A stretch of DNA of 32,000 nucleotides from an archaeon GW2011_AR10 (GTDB taxonomy: Archaea > Iainarchaeota > Iainarchaeia > Iainarchaeales > GW2011-AR10), in contig CP010424.1 of assembly GCA_000830275.1 (NCBI GenBank), positions 1,110,001 to 1,142,000 of the forward strand, written 5' to 3'. The notes under the pieces are model-generated. The model saw only the letters and a list, made by a program, of their open reading frames with translations, had not been told where the DNA came from and searched no databases. Every line of letters begins with the position of its first letter. The stretch's first letter is position 1. Made by a program: the position numbers and the translations under genes. Shown here in pieces: positions 10,551 to 29,765 of the stretch.

Positions 10551-10771
10551 GCAAAATGCTTATTTATTTGAACAAAAATTGCATTTTGCAACTAGCAAAC
10601 AGCAAATTAATGCTCAAAAATCAAAGCTGTTTGCTATATATCAAATGACATTAATAATTGAACATTTATTATTCATTTGCTATAGCAGGCGACATTAATT
10701 TTTGAGCATTTATTGTCGCCTGACAGATAGCAAATGACCTTATTTTTTCAAATATTTTCGCCATTTGCTAT
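10551..10771. repeat. family-1 array A: five contiguous ~44-bp palindromic modules
   Basis: Inverted-repeat arms at 10551-59/10581-89, 10593-603/10626-36, 10637-48/10673-84, 10686-94/10714-22 and 10727-36/10762-71. AT-rich 19-25 nt loops. Junction motif TTTGC-TATA-GCAAA. Confidence 0.85.
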
Positions 10772-11718: not shown

Positions 11719-11810
11719 ATTTTTATATAGGGGCTTCTACCCTTTTTAAGTGTTTCATTTTGTTAAGTCAACTGCTTTACAATTCCTTTCCCCAAAAATC
11801 GCGGTTAAAT

Positions 11811-11921
11811 GTGCCTTGCGGCACAGCCTTTTAAAAAAAGGCTGGCGAAAATGTGGCTTCGCCGAAGCCTTTTAAAAAAAGGCTGGCGAAAATGTGCCTT
11901 GCGGCAAAACCTTTTTATAGC
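11811..11921. repeat. family-2 array A: 41-bp tandem units of AGCCTTTTAAAAAAAGGCT plus a GGCGAA..TTCGCC hairpin
   Basis: Palindrome copies at 11825-11843 and 11866-11884. Hairpins gtgccttgcggcac (11811-24), ggcgaaaatgtggcttcgcc (11844-63) and gtgccttgcggca (11894-906). The array ends in AAACCTTTTTATAGC (11907-21). Confidence 0.8.
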
Positions 11922-11951
11922 AATTAAGTTCTATTACATTAGAATTAAGAT

Positions 11952-13048: not shown

Positions 13049-13104
13049 CCAACCGCAACTGCCAATGCAAAAAATTATATAGTTGGAGCGCCTTTTATTA
13101 ATGG

Positions 13105-13800
13105 ATGAATATTAATATTAGCATTGAAAAAAAGCCGGTCCTGGCTTTGGTTACATTAATTGCATTGGTGGCTATTTTCAGTTTGGTTATAGCCTATAAT
13201 CCAAACTGGCGCATTACTCCCGGAAACCCTGTTACTTTTGGTCACAGCCCCGACGAAATTGGAATTACCACAGTTTGCACCTTGGGGCAGGCACTAACTT
13301 TAACCGCAAGTGGTTGGAGTTGCGTTAATGTTGGGGGCGGCGGAGGCGGTCTTCAAATTGATTTTTCTGATATGGGGCAGACAATTTCCTCTGGTTCTGA
13401 TGGAACCCTGACTATTAATACCAATATTTTGCCTAATGGGGATTACCCTTATTACTCTGTTCCTCCTGGAGGCTCTAAGGAAATAATAATATTGGATTCC
13501 AGTTATGCAAACTACGCCGACACCAAGGCGGTTGTTATTGCCACCTATTTCGAGGGGGATGGTGGGGGCCCTGGCAGAGTATCATTTTATGTTGAGGCTA
13601 AAGACAGTTCTGGTTCGTGGAAAGTCATAAGCGTTGATGGTTTACACTTTAACGCAGCAGAAGGCTACCATCAGTCAGGTGCACAGTTTATTGTTCCGGC
13701 TGTCGGAAAAGGCCCTGCTGATTTAAGAATCAGGGTTCAATACGCTTCCGGTGCAACTTCAATAAAAATTATATTAAAAAGAGTCGGCGTAATTTATTAA
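13105..13800 (+). CDS. membrane-anchored extracellular protein, function unknown
   Basis: N-terminal anchor MNINISIEKKPVLALVTLIALVAIFSLVIAY, a Gly-run linker (GGGGGG), and a beta-rich C-terminal region. Confidence 0.75.
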   Translation: MNINISIEKKPVLALVTLIALVAIFSLVIAYNPNWRITPGNPVTFGHSPDEIGITTVCTLGQALTLTASGWSCVNVGGGGGGLQIDFSDMGQTISSGSDGTLTINTNILPNGDYPYYSVPPGGSKEIIILDSSYANYADTKAVVIATYFEGDGGGPGRVSFYVEAKDSSGSWKVISVDGLHFNAAEGYHQSGAQFIVPAVGKGPADLRIRVQYASGATSIKIILKRVGVIY

Positions 13801-13822
13801 TTGCGCAAAATTCTATTAATGG

Positions 13823-13852
13823 ATGAAAATTAATATTAGCGTTGAAAATTGA
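13823..13852 (+). other. 9-codon uORF or relic start (MKINISVEN*), homologous to the 5' end of gene 13105
   Basis: ttattaatggatgaatattaatattagcattgaaaa (13096-) matches ctattaatggatgaaaattaatattagcgttgaaaa (13813-). The second copy hits TGA 5 nt before ATG 13858. Confidence 0.3.
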
Positions 13853-13857
13853 TTCGA

Positions 13858-16008
13858 ATGAAAAAATTTTTTTCACAGTTGTTTGTGCTGCTTTTTCTGG
13901 TTTTTTTTATTCCGTTCGTTGCTGCACAGGACTGCACTATTAAGCCAAGCTGCCTTGCTTCAGAGTTTGCAGTTTTCTCTGTTCCAAGCACAACAAATGC
14001 TCACGCGTCAACCGCTGTTTCTGGTGCAGGCTCTTACTCCAATAAAGTCTGCTGCCCGTCCTCCGAATTTTCGGGCAACAGCTGCAGTGATCCAAATAAG
14101 GACGTTGCCCTGAACCTTTACAATGCAATGAACTCGCATGTAGAGCAGGATGGTTTGGGCAATTACTTTAATCCCGTTTGCCTTACTGCTGCAACGCAAG
14201 TAACCTGCTGGTACACAAGCGATGATTGTTCTGTTGCTGATGGTGTTGGAGTTGCAAGCATCTGGGATGGGCTCTGGGAAACAGGGGATGCAATTCAAAT
14301 CACTAACGCCCACGTTGAGCAATACAATGGCTCGGGCAATTACCCGATAAACGTTTGCTGTTCTGCTTCGGCTCCCTCAACTGATGTTTGCGGTGACGGA
14401 ACCGTTTCAGGCACAGAGGTTTGTGATCCTGCCCAAACTCCTGCAGAAATTGCGGCAATCTGCGGTGCAGGCAACGTCTGCGTTCCAGCTGGCCTTGCAA
14501 CTGAATGCACTTGCAATGCGCCTCCGATAGTGCAAATCATTGCACCTCCTGATGGGGCATCGTATGACATTGATGATGACATGCCCGTGTTGTTTGAAGG
14601 AACTGTAAGTGATATGGATGATGGCACAATATTTAACAGGTTTAATCCTCCTCCTCTTGGAAGGGTTGTGTGGCAGTCAAGCCTTGAAACAGTTGACGGC
14701 GGTTTCTTTGGTTGGGATGCCTTGTGGTTTGAGCGCCAGTTAACAAAAGTCGGAACACACACAATAACCCTTTATTACACTGATTCTGAGGCAGCGCAGG
14801 CAAGCACTACTGTTGACATCACTGTTTCGCAGTGCAGCGATGGAGCAGTTACAGGAGATGAAGAATGCGACATTGGCGGCATTAGTGGCGCGCCAGCCGT
14901 TGCATGCACGAACCCGGTTCAAACATGCAACCTTGACTGTGAATGTGTTTCAGGCCCTGCAACCCCAACATGCAATCTTTCAGTATCAGATAACACTGTC
15001 GGCCCCGGGGATTCAGTAACAGTTGACGTTTCATTGGACGATTTTTCTACAAATCCTACTACATTTGGCAGCGTTTCATGCGGTGATGCTGCCTCATATG
15101 AAGCAGACTTTTCCTGTACCGGCAACAATTGTTCCTTTTCCTGCGGCCCTTACTCAGCCAATGGAACAATAGAGAATTTGCAGTTGAATGATGGCGTAAC
15201 AACTGTAACTTGCAGTGGCGCGGTTGATATTAGTGTAGGCTCTCCAAGTGTGCCTTCGTGTTCAATTTATGCAATCCCCACAACAGTTGCTTCCGGTGGA
15301 AATGTTCTTGTAACTTTCATTTACTATGATTTCTCTGCAACCCCAAGCTTTTTAGGAATTGATTGCGGCAATGGCGCAACCCCAAGCTCCTTTAATTGCG
15401 CACCAACGTGCTATCTTACCTGCGATTCTTACTCAACCAATGGAACAATTGAGAACGCGGTTTTAAGTGATGGCGGAACCTCTGTTAACTGCGCAAACTC
15501 ATATAATATTACTGTTTCAGGCGGCCCCGGTCCAGGGCCTGCAGGAGATATTTGGGGTGTGAAGCTTTTGGCAAGCGATGATTACAATTCTTCGTCAAAC
15601 TTTAGGGTAATGGTTAGCATTACAAATTTTTCCACCGCACAAAAAGACGCTGATATTACTGTGCAGCTTGTTGACCACTTAAGCGGGCTGCCTCTTTCTC
15701 CAGCAATAACTGCAACAAAAACCATGCTTGTTGCCGGAAACAGCTCTACGCTTGATGTGGAATTCATTGAAGCAGATTTCTCTTCACCAATTCTTCCGAG
15801 AAATTACAGAGTTGTTGCTTCCGTTCCTGCCTACAATGATGGCATAACAATTGAAACTGTTATCGGAAACAATACTGATAGTAAAGTTGTTGTTGTCGGC
15901 GAGGCAAAGGCTGTTGCAATTTCCGAGCTGCCTTTGGAGCTTGTTGCAGTCATAGCTTTGGTTGTTTTAAGTATTCTTGGCGGTGCAGTTCCAGCCAAAA
16001 AAAATTGA
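13858..16008 (+). CDS. large Cys-rich surface protein (adhesin-like) with C-terminal TM anchor
   Basis: Signal peptide MKKFFSQLFVLLFLVFFIPFVAAQ. Three NAH(V)E..Y..VCC motifs. Two CxDGxxxGxExCD repeats. An Ig/PKD-like segment (..VVWQSSLETVDGGFFG..GTHTITLYYTDS..). An internal ~90-aa duplication. A CARDB-like segment. C-terminal anchor LELVAVIALVVLSILGG plus KKN. The track start 13849 is TTG. Confidence 0.85.
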   Translation: MKKFFSQLFVLLFLVFFIPFVAAQDCTIKPSCLASEFAVFSVPSTTNAHASTAVSGAGSYSNKVCCPSSEFSGNSCSDPNKDVALNLYNAMNSHVEQDGLGNYFNPVCLTAATQVTCWYTSDDCSVADGVGVASIWDGLWETGDAIQITNAHVEQYNGSGNYPINVCCSASAPSTDVCGDGTVSGTEVCDPAQTPAEIAAICGAGNVCVPAGLATECTCNAPPIVQIIAPPDGASYDIDDDMPVLFEGTVSDMDDGTIFNRFNPPPLGRVVWQSSLETVDGGFFGWDALWFERQLTKVGTHTITLYYTDSEAAQASTTVDITVSQCSDGAVTGDEECDIGGISGAPAVACTNPVQTCNLDCECVSGPATPTCNLSVSDNTVGPGDSVTVDVSLDDFSTNPTTFGSVSCGDAASYEADFSCTGNNCSFSCGPYSANGTIENLQLNDGVTTVTCSGAVDISVGSPSVPSCSIYAIPTTVASGGNVLVTFIYYDFSATPSFLGIDCGNGATPSSFNCAPTCYLTCDSYSTNGTIENAVLSDGGTSVNCANSYNITVSGGPGPGPAGDIWGVKLLASDDYNSSSNFRVMVSITNFSTAQKDADITVQLVDHLSGLPLSPAITATKTMLVAGNSSTLDVEFIEADFSSPILPRNYRVVASVPAYNDGITIETVIGNNTDSKVVVVGEAKAVAISELPLELVAVIALVVLSILGGAVPAKKN

Positions 16009-16059
16009 GCTACTGCGCGTAGAAGTGAATTTAAAGGCTCCTTGAGAATGCGCTGCCGG
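15961..16059 (+). repeat. 99-bp direct repeat, copy 1 (last 48 nt of the adhesin CDS plus 51 nt downstream)
   Basis: gttgttttaagtattcttggcggtgcagttccagccaaaaaaaattgagctactgcgcgtagaagtgaatttaaaggctccttgagaatgcgctgccgg. 92 of 99 positions match 16892-16990 with no indels. Confidence 0.9.
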
Positions 16060-16105: not shown

Positions 16106-16594
16106 ATGTTTGTTTCAAACACTTCAACCCTGATACTGCTGGCAAAAGTTGATTTGCTGGGCCAATTCATTGAAAATTTTGGGAAAATCGAGATAACTGG
16201 AGAGGTAAGCAAAGAGTTTTCTGCAAAAGATTCTTTTGATGCAAAATTTATAAGCCGCTTAATTGAAGAGAAAAAAGTAATCGTCAAAAAAGCGGAGAGT
16301 AACATGGTTTCTGGTATTTTGATGGAGTTTTCCTTGGATAAGGGCGAGGCAACGGCGTTTGCATTATTTAATGAAAAAAGGCACAAAGCAATTTTGACGG
16401 ACGACTATGAATTAATAAAACTGTGCATGCTGAGGGAAGTACAGTTTCTTTCTGCAATGGCAATAGTTGTCAGAATGAAAGAAAAAAAGATTTTGAGCAA
16501 AGAAGAAGCCCTGCAAAAAATCAATGAATTAAACTCTTATGGGCGATATTCAAGAGAGTTGCTCGATTTTTACGTTTCGGAGGTGAAAAAGTGA
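16106..16594 (+). CDS. PIN-like nuclease, DUF3368 (COG2405) family toxin candidate
   Basis: MFVSNTSTLILLAKVDLLGQFIENFGKIEITGEV..LDKGEATAFALFNEK..AILTDDYELIKLC fits the DUF3368 pattern. TATA-like AATAATTTTAAAT lies about 25 nt upstream. Confidence 0.8.
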   Translation: MFVSNTSTLILLAKVDLLGQFIENFGKIEITGEVSKEFSAKDSFDAKFISRLIEEKKVIVKKAESNMVSGILMEFSLDKGEATAFALFNEKRHKAILTDDYELIKLCMLREVQFLSAMAIVVRMKEKKILSKEEALQKINELNSYGRYSRELLDFYVSEVKK

Positions 16595-16878
16595 GAACTA
16601 CATCAGTAAGATTGGAAGAACCGGAATCGGTCACGGCTTTTCAGAAAGTCCTAAAGGAAAAAAAATCAGAAGTGTTGCGGCAGCTAATAGAAAAAGGCCG
16701 CAAGGCAAAGTCGCTGGAATTGTTCAAGCAAAAAAAAGTATCCCTCGGCCTTGGAGCAAGACTGGCAGGTTTAACAGTAAGCGGGTATTTGGACCTATTG
16801 GAAGAAAACAGGATACCGCTAAACCTTTCCAGACGAGAAGCACAAAAAGCATTAAATACTGCGAGAAAAGTAATGTAA
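16591..16878 (+). CDS. UPF0175 (COG2886) family antitoxin candidate
   Basis: FKQKKVSLGLGARLAGLTVSGYLDLLEENRIPLNLS matches the UPF0175 core. The GTG start overlaps the upstream stop (GTGA). Confidence 0.7.
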   Translation: MRTTSVRLEEPESVTAFQKVLKEKKSEVLRQLIEKGRKAKSLELFKQKKVSLGLGARLAGLTVSGYLDLLEENRIPLNLSRREAQKALNTARKVM

Positions 16879-16891
16879 GCCATATCCAAAG

Positions 16892-16990
16892 GTTGTTTTA
16901 AGCATTCTTGACGGTGCAGTTCCAGCCAAAAAAAATTGAGCTACTGCGCGTAGAAGTGAATTTAAGGGCTCCTTGTGAGTGCGTTTCCGG
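16892..16990 (+). repeat. 99-bp direct repeat, copy 2 (orphan adhesin 3' end upstream of orc1/cdc6)
   Basis: Encodes a relic VVLSILDGAVPAKKN* in the frame of the adhesin C-terminus. 92 of 99 positions match 15961-16059. Confidence 0.9.
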
Positions 16991-16994
16991 TGCA

Positions 16995-17006
16995 AGCCTT
17001 TTAATC
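16995..17006 (+). promoter_or_regulatory. putative TATA/BRE core of orc1/cdc6 (AGCCTTTTAATC)
   Basis: AT-rich box about 29 nt upstream of ATG 17030. The same CCTTTT(T)A core lies 21-45 nt upstream of several other starts (817-830, 263-275, 11907-11921). Confidence 0.35.
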
Positions 17007-17029
17007 TTCTTCCGACAATATTTTTTTTG

Positions 17030-18160
17030 ATGAAGAAAAACATTTTTGAGCGCTCCGGCAAGGAGAAGCAGGTTTTTAAGGATGAAAAGTACCTTTACCC
17101 CGAGTTTGTGCCGGAGAGGCTTCCGCACCGTGACAGGGAAATTGATGCGCTAGTGTATGGCTTTAATCCTTTGGTTAAGGGGGGGAAACCGCACAACTTT
17201 TTTGTTGTCGGGCCAACAGGCGTTGGAAAAACTGCCTGCGTGAAGTATGTTTTGAATGAGCTGCAGGAATACAGCGACAGGGCAAAAGCCCTTTACTTGA
17301 ACTGCTTCGAGTTCAATGCAAGGCACGCAATTCTCTCCAAAATAGCGAATTTTTTGGGCGCTCCTGTTCCAAGGCGCGGGATTGCAACAGATGAAATTTA
17401 TTCGAGGTTCCTTGAGGCCTTGAAGAAGGCTGATTTTTCCCCAGTAATTGTTTTGGATGAAGTTGACCAGCTTCTTTTGAAGGCTGATGGGTCAAAGCTT
17501 TTGTATGATTTGCTGCGCGTAGTGGAGTATGAGAGGGCAAGAGTTGCCTTGGTGCTTATTTCGAATGACATTGAGTTGACAGCAAAACTTGATTCCCGCG
17601 TGAGGAGCTCCCTCACAGAGGAAAAAATTGTTTTTGAGTCCTACACTCCAGCGCAGTTGAAGGACATTCTGCGCGAGAGGGCATCCTTTGCTTTTTTGTC
17701 TGGGGCACTTGGAGAGGAAGTAATACCTGTTGCTGCAGCTCACGCCGCAAGGCTTGGGGGAGACGCAAGAATTGCAATTGAATCCTTGTTGAAGGCGGGA
17801 AGGGAAGCAGAGAAAGAGAATTCCGGCAAAGTTGAAGTGAAGCACTTGAAAAAATCTTTTGAGTCAGTTGATGCGGTTTCTTTGCTGAAAGGAATTAGGC
17901 ACTTGAATGAAAGCGAGGCACTGCTGCTTAAGCTTATTGCTGAAAAGCCCGGCATTTTTTCCGGGGAACTGTTCAAGGCCTTTGGCGGGAAAACTGAACC
18001 GCTTTCAGAGAGGAGGCTCCGCGATCTGTTGAATGGCTTGGAGAAAAAAAACTTTGTTTTCTCAGAGCAAGTCAGCCTAGGCAACAAGGGCAAAACAAGA
18101 AGTTTTTCGTGCAGGCTTCCAAGAGAGCCACTAATGCGGGAGCTTAACCGAAACCAATAA
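17030..18160 (+). CDS. cdc6: Orc1/Cdc6 replication initiator
   Basis: ERLPHRDREIDAL.., Walker A GPTGVGKT, Walker B VIVLDEVD, C-terminal winged helix. ATG 17030 is preferred over the track GTG 16979, which lies inside the 99-bp repeat. Confidence 0.95.
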   Translation: MKKNIFERSGKEKQVFKDEKYLYPEFVPERLPHRDREIDALVYGFNPLVKGGKPHNFFVVGPTGVGKTACVKYVLNELQEYSDRAKALYLNCFEFNARHAILSKIANFLGAPVPRRGIATDEIYSRFLEALKKADFSPVIVLDEVDQLLLKADGSKLLYDLLRVVEYERARVALVLISNDIELTAKLDSRVRSSLTEEKIVFESYTPAQLKDILRERASFAFLSGALGEEVIPVAAAHAARLGGDARIAIESLLKAGREAEKENSGKVEVKHLKKSFESVDAVSLLKGIRHLNESEALLLKLIAEKPGIFSGELFKAFGGKTEPLSERRLRDLLNGLEKKNFVFSEQVSLGNKGKTRSFSCRLPREPLMRELNRNQ

Positions 18161-19319: not shown

Positions 19320-20507
19320 TCAGTGTGACAACTGTATTTTTATCACGTCGTTGTTTTTGAGCTCGTGGTCTTTTCCTATTCTTTGGCCTGTCCTGCAGTC
19401 AACTGCTGCGATGAACCTTTCAACGAAGCCTGAGTGAATTGCTTCCGCCAGCCTAATAGCAGTTGAGCCCTTTCTCAGCAAGTAAGCGTCAGGCAAAAAG
19501 TTTCCTTTCCCGCTCTGCCACTTGTTTGAGTCCTGCACTGGGTAAACAACTATTAGGCTCAAAAGCCCGAAAGCAGTTTTATTGATTGCCTGTTGGACGC
19601 CGGTGCTGCCCCACTTTTTCAAAACATTTGACATTATGAATTCTAGTGCTTTCCTCTGCTTTTCTGGGAGTTCTTGTTTCAGCAGCTTGAATTCGCTGCT
19701 GCCTGGCACATACTCAATTATTCCTGCTTTTGCTGCTTTCCTTAACGCAAGCTCCGCTTCACTGCAGCACGGGATTATAATGTGCTGCGGGAACTCCTTG
19801 ACAAGCCTTTCATAGTTTTCCTTTGCGCCCTCCAAATCAATCTTGTTTGCAACAACAATCATTGGCTTGCTTTTTTTTCTTATTTCCTCAGAAAATCGCA
19901 GTATTTCCTCCTCACTCCATGAGTCTGGCTTTTCGCTGAAGGAGCCTTTCTCCAGAACGCTTTTGACTTCATCTTCTGTTATGCCTAGGCCTGTTAGCTG
20001 ATTTGCAAGCCCCTCGCTTGCTTTCCCTGCAAGGGATGCCTGCTTCGAGATTTTGCCCCAGTTCTTGGTGAGAATTCCATTAATCCAATAGCTTATTTCT
20101 TTTTCAAGGAACCGCACATCCTCTGCCGGGTCATTGCTCTCAACGGAGTTTCCCTCAAGGTCTGTTCTCCCGCTTGCATCAAGCACCTGAATCAGTGCTT
20201 TTGCCTGCATCAAGTCATTCATGAAAGCATTTCCAAGGCCCTTTCCTTTGTGGGCGTCAGGCACCAATCCTGCAACATCCAGCAAAGTGATTGGAATAAG
20301 CCTTATGCTATTCTCGCACTTGCTGTTAACGGGCTGGCAGGGCTTTTCTTTTTCCTCGTGCACGCATTTTGTTGAAACATATGCTGTGCCCTGGTTGGGC
20401 TTGATTGTTGTGAAAGGCCGGTTCGCTATTTCCACATCAACAAGCGTTGCTGCGCTAAAAAAAGTTGATTTTCCCTTGTTTGGGCCCCCTACAACGCCTA
20501 TAATCAT
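19320..20507 (-). CDS. Obg/YchF-DRG-type GTPase with C-terminal TGS domain
   Basis: G1 GGPNKGKST, G2 region FTTIKPN, G3 DVAGLV, G4 NKID. TGS-like tail RKGSTAIRLAEAIHSGFVERFIAAVDCRTGQRIGKDHELKNNDVIKI. Confidence 0.9.
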   Translation of the reverse strand: MIIGVVGGPNKGKSTFFSAATLVDVEIANRPFTTIKPNQGTAYVSTKCVHEEKEKPCQPVNSKCENSIRLIPITLLDVAGLVPDAHKGKGLGNAFMNDLMQAKALIQVLDASGRTDLEGNSVESNDPAEDVRFLEKEISYWINGILTKNWGKISKQASLAGKASEGLANQLTGLGITEDEVKSVLEKGSFSEKPDSWSEEEILRFSEEIRKKSKPMIVVANKIDLEGAKENYERLVKEFPQHIIIPCCSEAELALRKAAKAGIIEYVPGSSEFKLLKQELPEKQRKALEFIMSNVLKKWGSTGVQQAINKTAFGLLSLIVVYPVQDSNKWQSGKGNFLPDAYLLRKGSTAIRLAEAIHSGFVERFIAAVDCRTGQRIGKDHELKNNDVIKIQLSH

Positions 20508-20571
20508 TTTGCCCCGAAATCACTTCTCTTTCAATCATTCTTTAATTTTAACTGAAAAAAATTATGTGCAG

Positions 20572-20754
20572 GCAGCTGTAGTGTAATGGCAGCATCCGAG
20601 CTTCCCAAAAGCGGAAAGGCCCGTTTACGACCTGTACTTGTTCCACTTTCAGTGGGACGGTAGTTCAAGGTTTGCTCAAGTTTGCTCATACGGCCTTAGT
20701 TATTTTCACGATTGGAATGAGCTCGTAGCCCGGGTTCGAGTCCCGGCAGCTGCA
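20572..20754 (+). tRNA. tRNA-Gly(CCC) with a 112-nt intron at the canonical 37/38 position
   Basis: Acceptor gcagctg/cagctgc plus discriminator A. D arm gtgt-aatggca-gcat. Anticodon arm cgagc-ttCCCaa-gctcg after splicing. T arm ccggg-ttcgagt-cccgg. U8, A14, G18G19, U33 and T54-C56 are present. No encoded CCA. TATA-like TTTAATTTTAA lies about 25 nt upstream. Confidence 0.85.
20608..20719 (+). other. tRNA intron with a bulge-helix-bulge motif
   Basis: Central 4-bp helix: ttcc (20602-05) with ggaa (20714-17). 3-nt bulges caa (20606-08) and tga (20718-20). Flanking anticodon stem of 5 bp. The inner helix is weak (aa/tt, then cg/cg after a mismatch). Confidence 0.75.
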
Positions 20755-20907
20755 TTAAACCGTATTCGGTTTACGAATGTGCCATGCTCCGTTTCACTTT
20801 GCATGGCACTGCTCAAACGGAAAGATCCGTTTACGACCTATATGTGTGCCATCTTCGATGGCACGATAATTTTGCTCAGTTGCAAGGTGTGCAATCTGCG
20901 ATGGCAC
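20611..20907 (+). repeat. family-3 hairpin modules: one in the tRNA intron, two to three in the 3' trailer
   Basis: Unit 1, 20611-20658: gcggaaaggcccgtttacgacctgtacttgttccactttcagtgggac. Unit 2, 20767-20809. Unit 3, 20817-20864: acggaaagatccgtttacgacctatatgtgtgccatcttcgatggcac. Degenerate unit 4, 20887-20907. Each is followed by (T)TTGCTCA. Confidence 0.75.
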
Positions 20908-20944
20908 TGGCTCACTTCGTTCTCCAAAAAAAGAAAGAAGAGAA

Positions 20945-20964
20945 AGGGTCAGTTGACCCTTTTT
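20945..20964. terminator. bidirectional terminator-like palindrome
   Basis: agggtcagttgaccct followed by TTTTT on the + strand. An A7 run at 20926-32 gives T7 on the - strand, just downstream of the small minus-strand CDS. Confidence 0.35.
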
Positions 20965-21104
20965 AATTCCTTTATCCTTTCCTCGATTCCTTTGACTTCG
21001 TTTTCAAGGCTGTCCTTGTATTCTTCCAGCATTTCTATTTTCTCTTCTTTTGTAAGGTACCTTCTTGGGGCTTCAAAGCCTTCCCCGCAACATACGTAAC
21101 TCAC
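20949..21104 (-). CDS. small coiled-coil protein, DUF5320-like (51 aa)
   Basis: My own translation from GTG 21104 with GGAGG 7 nt upstream: (M)SYVCCGEGFEAPRRYLTKEEKIEMLEEYKDSLENEVKGIEERIKELKRVN. Below the track size cutoff. The + ORF 20638..21099 is spurious. Confidence 0.5.
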   Translation of the reverse strand: MSYVCCGEGFEAPRRYLTKEEKIEMLEEYKDSLENEVKGIEERIKELKRVN

Positions 21105-21130
21105 TCCAATTCCTCCCGAACATTTAATTT

Positions 21131-21216
21131 GTATCGGTTATACGATACTTAAGTAGTATTTATACTAAGGCATATTTATATATATCGGTCACCCAATATT
21201 AGTATGCATGATACTA
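21131..21216. promoter_or_regulatory. palindromes in the divergent PadR / small-CDS promoter region
   Basis: gtatcg-gttata-cgatac (21131-48), tagtat-tt-atacta (21154-67), tagtat-gcatg-atacta (21200-16). TATA-like CATATTTATATATAT at 21171-85. Confidence 0.3.
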
Positions 21217-21509
21217 GTTATGCCAGATACTGTTGTGACATGCGCGGCATGCTTTCCTTTCTCATTCTTTTCTTGCTCTCGAAGAAGAAAATGCATGGGC
21301 AGGAACTTGCAGAAGAAATCGGGCGAAGGAAAGGCTCGAAGCCCAGCCCCGGCACAATTTACCCTGCACTCAAGGGCCTGAGGGAAGAAGGCCTGATTGC
21401 TGAGAAAAGGGAGGGAAAGAAAGTTACTTACAGTTTAACCAAGGAAGGCGAAGCAGGTTTAAAGGATGCAAAAAAGCAGTTCTGCAGGACCTTTGTGGGC
21501 GTTTTCTAG
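21204..21509 (+). CDS. PadR family transcriptional regulator
   Basis: MRGMLSFLILFLLSKKKMHGQELAEEIGRRKGSKPSPGTIYPALKGLREEGLIAEKREGKKVTYSLTKEG is a PadR wHTH. Alternative start at ATG 21240. Confidence 0.85.
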   Translation: MHDTSYARYCCDMRGMLSFLILFLLSKKKMHGQELAEEIGRRKGSKPSPGTIYPALKGLREEGLIAEKREGKKVTYSLTKEGEAGLKDAKKQFCRTFVGVF

Positions 21510-27886: not shown

Positions 27887-27986
27887 AAACCTTTTAAAAA
27901 AGGTTTATCAAAAATGGGCTCCGCCTAAACCTTTTAAAAAAAGGTTTGCGAAAAAGGCTTCGCCTTTACTTCACCTATGCGGAGCC
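27887..27986. repeat. family-2 array B: 40-bp tandem units of AAACCTTTTAAAAAA(A)GGTTT plus a GCGAA..TTCGC hairpin
   Basis: Palindromes at 27887-27906 and 27927-27947. Hairpin gcgaaaaaggcttcgc at 27948-63. An outer inverted repeat ggctccgc/gcggagcc (27917-24/27979-86) encloses the second unit. Confidence 0.75.
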
Positions 27987-29580: not shown

Positions 29581-29765
29581 TATAGCAAAACGCTTATGTA
29601 TTTGAACAAATAGCGAATGACTTTACTAATGGTAAAAAACAAGTCATTCGCTAGTCGCAAAAGACATTAAGAAATTACCAAAACCAATGTCTTTTGCTAA
29701 AAAAATTGCATTTTGCAACCAGCAAACAGAATTAAATGTTCAAGAATAAAAGTTGTTTGCTATAC
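29581..29765. repeat. family-1 array B: four palindromic modules, homologous to array A
   Basis: 29701-29765 is about 88 percent identical to 10575-10640. Modules: tagcgaatgact/agtcattcgcta (29611-22/29642-53), gcaaaagacatt/aatgtcttttgc (29657-68/29686-97), agcaaaca/tgtttgct (29721-28/29754-61). A split outer pair gcaaaacgc (29585-93) / gcattttgc (29708-16). Confidence 0.85.

Follow-up and report, generated by a model that had tools for sequence, protein, structure and literature searches.

A family of structured repeats adjoining tRNA genes in an AR10-like Iainarchaeota archaeon, with one member at the start of a tRNA-Gly intron

We analyzed a window of 32,000 nucleotides (nt) from the archaeon GW2011_AR10 (contig CP010424.1, positions 1,110,001 to 1,142,000; coordinates below refer to this window unless another contig is named) and describe a short structured repeat that lies in the intron and in the 3' trailer of a tRNA gene. 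The gene is a tRNA-Gly(CCC) at 20572-20754 on the plus strand, reported by ARAGORN when introns are allowed; default ARAGORN finds no tRNA in the window, and Rfam at gathering thresholds returns no match in it. Exon 1 (20572-20607, tRNA positions 1 to 37) is followed by a 112-nt intron after position 37 (20608-20719, canonical position 37/38) and by exon 2 (20720-20754), and removal of the intron leaves a normal anticodon loop, TTCCCAA, according to ARAGORN. The interval 20500-21110 is identical across six comparable assemblies from different samples, so the locus is no assembly artefact. Since it shows zero substitutions among population variants, it also provides no usable within-species covariation.

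The repeat unit, or module, spans approximately 58 nt and consists of a single A, a first hairpin H1 (AAACGG, a 6-nt loop, CCGTTT), the linker ACGACCT, a second hairpin H2, and a tail GGTARTT that is extended as TTGCTC in young copies. H2 has 8 bp and a 3-nt loop in the aligned copies, and the family is described by a covarying H2 of 9 to 12 bp. Four copies, all on the plus strand, are present at the tRNA-Gly gene. Module M0 (20608-20665), defined by alignment and by 80.2 bits with R1, a covariance model built from four AR10 copies, begins at the first intron base and comprises H1 at 20609-14/20621-26, the linker at 20627-39, H2 at 20640-47/20651-58 and the tail GGTAGTT. Behind the tRNA follow M1 (20756-20814, from sequence, hairpin and folding analysis), whose 5' end lies 2 nt past the tRNA, and M2 (20814-20871), head-to-tail behind M1, with 83.5 bits in R1, a terminator-like match, H1 at 20815-20/20827-32 and H2 at 20846-53/20857-64, followed by GATAATTTTGCTCA. 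The last copy, M3 (20887-20907; repeat search, models and pair check), is an H2-only remnant with one A/G mismatch.

The original prediction, made from this sequence alone, had proposed that the intron and the trailer share a homologous segment, and the computed alignments bear this out. Positions 20609-20665 and 20815-20871 align over 57 nt without gaps at 75% identity in the repeat search, and a Smith-Waterman alignment of intron against trailer scores 44, compared with 15.1 +/- 2.2 (maximum, 29) for 2000 dinucleotide shuffles, none of which reach 44. A related copy at 20767-20809 and a degenerate hairpin near 20889-20907 had been noted as well, and both stand: the latter, as M3, is 90% identical to the M2 hairpin at 20844-20864, and the former contains GTGCCA..TGGCAC, which occurs exactly only at 20779-20809 and 20846-20864 (chance expectation, 0.07). 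The former further proves to be part of a complete unit, M1, with its own 5' hairpin. H1 of M1 (AAACCG-TATT-CGGTTT, 20757-62/20767-72) is a compensatory variant of AAACGG/CCGTTT; its linker is short, its H2 has 9 bp (20779-87/20801-09) and a 13-nt loop, and its tail is TGCTC. Because of these indels, M1 scores only 7.5 to 10 bits with the covariance models.

The tail motifs are likewise found where they had been reported: the 32-kb window has four TTTGCTCA copies, three of them at 20671, 20681 and 20871, and TGCTCAAA is at 20810. Two of them fall within the intron (20671-20688, plus strand; repeat search and motif scan), and the adjoining 3' part of the intron, ACGGCCTT (20690-97), is able to pair with the M0 region in folding. 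The trailer as a whole folds with z = -6.5 and -7.0 relative to shuffles on the two strands. Between 20755 and 20959 there is no run of at least five T on the tRNA strand, and the only T4 lies at 20870, behind H2 of M2. The trailer closes, as had been anticipated, with a hairpin plus T5 at 20941-20964, where the terminator scan of both strands detects a hairpin with T-runs characteristic of a bidirectional terminator. This terminator overlaps the stop codon of a convergent, DUF5320-like open reading frame (ORF) of 51 aa (20949-21104, minus strand; ORF and gene calls) and is therefore shared between the trailer and this ORF, a point absent from the original prediction.

We considered whether the module belongs to a recognized class of sequence. 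Nothing reaches Rfam gathering thresholds, the best sub-threshold match over module and trailer being 17 bits against a cut-off of 61, and a known RNA family is therefore rejected. An intron-encoded C/D-box guide of the tRNA-Trp type is rejected too, since both the C box (RUGAUGA) and the D box (CUGA) are missing from the plus strand of 20572-20970. Peptide coding by the units can be dismissed, as the short ORFs that they share reflect DNA homology and their substitutions keep pairing.

The family extends to other tRNA genes. An exact-pattern scan of metagenome contigs yielded seven loci, of which three are real, each adjoining a tRNA, and four are chance matches inside G+C-rich coding DNA. 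The contig DUFG01000005.1 (here L036) belongs to assembly GCA_013332025.1, which also holds the window sequence; the GTPase encoded next to the tRNA-Gly locus occurs as an exact protein on DUFG01000013.1 of that assembly and in many groundwater metagenomes. L036 carries a tRNA with an intron, Glu(TTC) according to ARAGORN, and 1 to 3 nt downstream of it a unit, c1, and then an H2-only remnant, c2, and a further unit, c3. M2+M3 and c1+c2 are 88% identical over 100 nt, and the units M2 and c1 alone are 97% identical. A solo copy without a tRNA lies 5.6 kb from this array and represents a segmental duplicate (104 nt at 98% and 69 nt at 93% identity).

Two observations concern this array and its surroundings. 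A 1.9-kb JGI contig (L025) fuses two AR10 loci via a 104-nt repeat of 98% identity, which corresponds to L036 10954-11057 and 16283-16386; either the assembly produced a chimera or the contig reflects genuine recombination, and L036 was used in its place for the tRNA-Glu array. Approximately 640 nt from the unit-bearing tRNA-Glu, a free-standing LAGLIDADG_3 ORF (L036 11372-12269, minus strand) lies directly upstream of a tRNA annotated by ARAGORN as 'Ala' with an 84-nt intron.

The other real hits come from a second organism, referred to as organism B, from the same groundwater and aquifer metagenome projects (G+C, 40 to 42%). This organism carries one unit flush at +1 of a tRNA-Met(CAT), on the strand opposite to both the tRNA-Met and the neighboring ORF. 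Model R1 recovers copies on which it was not trained, namely that of organism B (65 bits) and the solo copy (58 bits), and scores nothing else across 42 contiguous kb of AR10 DNA, the remainder of L036 and approximately 13 kb of organism B with seven tRNA genes. Extending the window by 10 kb adds neither a tRNA nor a module. In organism B, the trailer of tRNA-His (L037 1857-1930) contains two strong hairpins, GCCGGGAGCTCCGGC and CTTGTACC-CTTCT-GGTACAAG, and a stretch, GACCTTGTAC, that resembles the unit linker; this trailer is alike by eye and was rejected as a family member, as it has no score with the second covariance model, R2.

Comparison of the copies indicates that the hairpins are maintained as structures. 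Across the six full copies from two organisms, 83 of 83 pair cells are standard pairs, and six of the eight H2 pairs are changed on both sides, a number reached by 2 of 500 shuffles (1.7 +/- 1.1). Sliding the pairing partners against each other abolishes pairing in the same six copies. RNAalifold independently returns H1 and H2 and extends H2 by a U.G pair and by pairing of TAY with the RTA of the tail, and every copy gains U.G pairs through this extension. Conservation at the sequence level is seen instead in H1 and the linker, with 26 of 26 nt identical between c1 and the organism B unit, and the H2 stems of these same two units share almost nothing. We count five G.U and zero A.C among the non-Watson-Crick pairs of the hand-listed helices, which assigns the fold to the module sense strand, as RNA or single-stranded DNA; for all AR10 copies this is the tRNA strand. 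The partial copies M3 and c2 are mismatched and appear decayed, and the diverged full copies M0, c3 and B are fully paired. In addition, the motif CGTTTAC is found 4 to 13 nt ahead of every hairpin.

The original prediction had favored a hairpin over a protein operator, and this is upheld: a sequence-specific dimeric operator is disfavored by the complete pairing and the compensatory changes, and an operator for the adjacent PadR regulator in particular is rejected because the H2 stems are wholly different between copies. A proposed kinship of the module with two other repeat families of the window (families 1 and 2) is not supported, resting on one short motif chosen post hoc, and neither covariance model scores these families.

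The position of the units is as distinctive as their structure. Four independent unit 5' ends lie 0 to 3 nt from a tRNA or exon boundary, namely a 5' splice site (M0), two tRNA 3' ends (M1 and c1) and one tRNA 5' end (B). The hexamer CTCGCT in front of unit c3 also ends the tRNA, although it may be no more than a unit tail. Every copy in AR10 is co-oriented with its upstream gene. A covariance search of other tRNA introns, which the original prediction had suggested as a place to find the module, located it in none of those checked (the introns of tRNA 'Glu', 'Ala', Met, Tyr and Thr(TGT, L040), a small sample). Taken together, a real, structured repeat family that is linked to tRNA genes is well supported.

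The tRNA-Gly intron, which opens with the intact family member M0, can be drawn with a bulge-helix-bulge. The drawing comprises the anticodon stem CGAGC/GCTCG, a central helix TTCC (20602-20605)/GGAA (20714-20717), two bulges of 3 nt, CA|A and TG|A, in which the second base is followed by the splice site, and two A-T pairs on the outside. Enforcing this motif gives -33.6 kcal/mol, and the unconstrained minimum of -39.4 kcal/mol has a different register. The intron is thus compatible with a predicted bulge-helix-bulge splicing motif, rather than demonstrating one.

In the mechanism that we prefer, with a rough probability of 0.5, the units are transcribed with the tRNA, removed by tRNA processing and released as hairpin-capped RNAs. 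The tRNA-Gly promoter would transcribe the exons, the intron with M0, and the trailer with M1 to M3, with transcription ending either at the T4 (20870) or at the T5 (20960). Excision of the intron at the bulge-helix-bulge motif would fall to the splicing endonuclease, RNase Z would cut 2 nt ahead of M1, and because these two enzymes would remove the units, the mature tRNA would be unharmed. Each released RNA would carry a hairpin cap at both ends with a short, conserved, single-stranded linker between them. This mechanism fits the wobble pairs confined to one strand, the shared orientation of the AR10 copies, the absence of terminators early in the trailer and the intact state in which old copies persist.

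Several points weigh against it. We infer co-transcription, processing and any function of the released RNAs from sequence, and the predicted minimum-energy fold is not the splicing motif. The organism B copy, being on the opposite strand, cannot belong to the tRNA-Met pre-tRNA, and no complement of the linker, as would be expected of a target, is found in the DNA examined. This DNA covers approximately 5% of the genome and was partly selected for containing the module. Movement at the DNA level, superfluous to a purely RNA-functional view, is further indicated by young copies that are 87 to 97% identical at different loci, by the segmental duplication of the solo copy, and by a strain breakpoint beside one array.

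These last signs lead to the main alternative, which we regard as possible if rather doubtful, in which the unit targets the boundaries of tRNA genes as a small mobile or recombining DNA element or as one end of an integrative element. The hairpins of the unit would be recognized as single-stranded DNA, in the manner of IS200/IS605-derived or REP-like (repetitive extragenic palindromic) elements, or would form an attachment-site arm; the transcripts would be incidental and the intron an insertion that happens to be spliceable. The mobile-DNA and RNA views are compatible and not exclusive. In favor of mobility, the young copies at three loci stand beside old copies of approximately 75% identity, and the solo duplicate is joined to the 104-nt repeat. 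In a strain variant with its breakpoint next to the tRNA-Glu array (L046 5835-6007, compared with L036 from 10370 onward), identity is 99.6% up to the 3' end of a 130-aa ORF, and the sequence after it is unrelated. Moreover, in a relative with a 75% identical GTPase, the syntenic site between the genes for GTPase and RFC (L026 9954-10001) lacks the block of tRNA-Gly, 51-aa ORF and PadR gene (window 20572-21509). Neither a tRNA nor a module is found at the corresponding site of relatives traced by the GTPase (59 to 77% identity) or by PadR, and other DPANN genomes have the PadR/51-aa pair at different places, with no tRNA beside it. In organism B the copy lies inverted against the 5' end of its tRNA, behind plus-strand CACCGGC, a 7-mer that also ends the tRNA; the presence of this 7-mer at both tRNA ends follows from the self-complementarity of acceptor stems. 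The CGTTTAC ahead of every hairpin recalls the layout of IS608 (IS200/IS605), with its TTAC target and left-end hairpin, and the anticodon loop and the 3' end are classic sublocations for integrases in tRNA genes. Mobility is opposed by the gene tables of the available module-locus flanks, in which no integrase or Y1 transposase is called, the only candidate being a weak DDE_Tnp_1 fragment approximately 7.5 kb away. There are also no terminal inverted repeats or target duplications, the flanks differ, two scans of IMG/VR gave no viral-contig match, and the copy number seems low. Finally, old diverged copies are still perfectly paired, unlike dead elements.

Less probable still are two readings in which the unit serves the expression of its neighbor. 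One, which we consider improbable, is a terminator or 3'-end-protection cassette for tRNA genes, spread between trailers by gene conversion, with an accidental copy in the intron. M2, c1 and the solo copy do present a hairpin followed by AATTTTG (T4) and are picked by the terminator scan. Module-free tRNA genes at these loci mostly have a T3-T4 run within approximately 30 nt of the 3' end, and in module-bearing genes the first T4 comes only beyond H2. However, M0, M1, c3 and B have no T-run, archaeal termination is driven by oligo-T and needs no hairpin, the sequence-conserved H1 and linker would be needless for a terminator, and the organism B copy points the wrong way. The other, very improbable in our estimate, is a promoter cassette on the opposite strand, in which an ATATA of the unit, approximately 30 nt from its 5' end, would drive the abutting gene. 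The organism B unit indeed places CATATACA at -34 to -27 of tRNA-Met, where other tRNA genes of that organism have TTTAAAWA. Against this, such promoters would drive antisense transcription of tRNA-Gly and tRNA-Glu in AR10, the TAT/TAC triplet covaries with GTA/ATA of the tail in the extended H2, and M0 and M1 have no TATA-like sequence.

Returning to the preferred mechanism, in which units are released by tRNA processing, the presence of M0 raises the matter of how the intron arose. The original prediction had left two directions, and the better of them is that the intron was captured from the repeat family: most likely it captured a flank unit and not the reverse, because flank copies adjoin two other tRNA genes and the introns of those tRNAs lack the unit. 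A unit of the flank family, together with approximately 54 nt of other sequence, would have been inserted or recombined into the anticodon loop, and the insertion would have survived because its junctions were able to form a splicing motif. We also entertain, as a speculative and unlikely extension, that the insertion points are set by the tRNA-processing sites themselves, that is, the 5' splice site and the RNase Z and RNase P sites. Units would either have been joined to processed tRNA ends as RNA and then fixed in DNA, or an integration machinery would read the same structures. A milder form holds that the units constitute a new class of small RNAs made wholly by tRNA processing.

The known kinds of sequence nearest to the unit are archaeal tRNA introns of shared sequence and structured intergenic repeats. 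Among the latter, REP elements, bacterial interspersed mosaic elements (BIMEs) and mini-elements derived from IS200/IS605 are short imperfect palindromes with a conserved 5' motif and strand-specific folding, and REP/BIME-type elements cluster in intergenic DNA as a mixture of intact and decayed copies. The unit is alike in its short 5' motif CGTTTAC, its strand-specific fold, its intergenic clustering and its blend of intact and decayed copies, and differs in forming direct arrays tied to tRNA boundaries and in having a second, sequence-conserved hairpin; the gene tables of the AR10 loci list no Y1 (HUH) transposase. By-products of tRNA processing also include functional RNAs, such as the 3'ETS-leuZ sponge of Escherichia coli and the C/D-box guide in the archaeal tRNA-Trp intron. 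They resemble the proposed mechanism in that a trailer or intron is released by processing as a stable RNA with its own role, whereas the AR10 unit has no C/D boxes and no Rfam family. Two further DNA elements are rejected. A miniature inverted-repeat transposable element (MITE) does not fit, since the only inverted repeats are the internal hairpins, no target-site duplication is seen and the flanks differ, nor does an integron attC site, since the core is GTTTACG and not GTTRRRY and the units lie head-to-tail with no ORFs between them.

Among tRNA introns, the transposed intron families of Thermoproteales (Fujishima et al. 2010, summarized in PMC4090602) offer the nearest parallel, in that near-identical sequence is found in introns of the splicing-endonuclease type and at other tRNA-linked sites of one genome, implying recent intron gain at the DNA level (PMC4090602). 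In that case all copies are introns of different tRNA genes, whereas the AR10 family has its remaining copies in 3' trailers, and organism B has one in a 5' flank. In Caldiarchaeum subterraneum, intron gain and fragmentation of tRNA-Thr have been attributed to an integrating element (PMC3293823). The likeness there is a tRNA locus with rearrangement at the population level and an intron proposed to stem from inserted foreign DNA; that element, however, measures 1.8 kb and encodes a recombinase (PMC3293823), and ours is a 58-nt structured unit with no recombinase seen. In the split tRNAs of Nanoarchaeum equitans, the sequence after position 37 is trailer-like (PMC4090602), as is the 5' part of the AR10 intron, but the AR10 gene is contiguous, and its exon 2 lacks a promoter-like element at a suitable distance ahead of it.

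The window itself has a G+C content of 43%, is AR10-like Iainarchaeota (DPANN), and carries archaeal core genes for Cdc6/Orc1, the RFC large subunit, PheRS alpha and beta, CDC48 and topoisomerase I. We observe several other repeats in it. A 100-nt direct repeat with 93% identity (15960-16059 and 16891-16990) brackets a UPF0175/DUF3368 gene pair (16106-16878), and the longest cdc6/orc1 reading frame (16979-18160) begins inside the second copy. The repeat could be an insertion with a duplicated flank or belong to repeats linked to a replication origin. Three 41-nt tandem units occupy a divergent intergenic region at 11789-11933, each with an A/T-rich palindrome, AGCCTTTTAAAAAAAGGCT, and an inner GTGCC-TTGC-GGCAC hairpin; a related unit lies at 27892-27954. 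A kinship of these tandem repeats with the module is not supported, as they have only CGAA(AA)TGTGCCNTGC in common with M1 and no covariance-model score. At the starts of two consecutive genes (13105-13800 and 13849-16008), a 38-nt repeat with 92% identity (13093-13130 and 13811-13848) looks like a duplicated upstream region. Palindromic intergenic repeats made of AATGCTCAAAAATCAAAGCTGTTTGCTATA and its inverse are found at 10577-10714 and 29730-29764, with the topoisomerase gene adjoining and the related copy 19 kb away. Approximately 10 kb past the right end of the window, a Lon protease gene (L030 1-2674) contains an intein, recognized by its Intein_splicing domain.

The mechanism of intron transposition in Thermoproteales has been described as not known (PMC4090602). 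For the gain of an archaeal tRNA intron, the tRNA-Gly intron described here points to a concrete donor sequence and indicates which way the capture went, and as such it is a rare sequence clue to the origin of these introns. The analysis also introduces a structured repeat that had not been described before, present in a DPANN archaeon of small genome and showing compensatory evolution across two organisms. Depending on which view holds, the repeat would be a novel small RNA that depends on tRNA or a mini-element of a new, tRNA-targeting kind, and if tRNA-processing sites did determine where it inserts, this locus would record the birth of an archaeal tRNA intron from a flank element.

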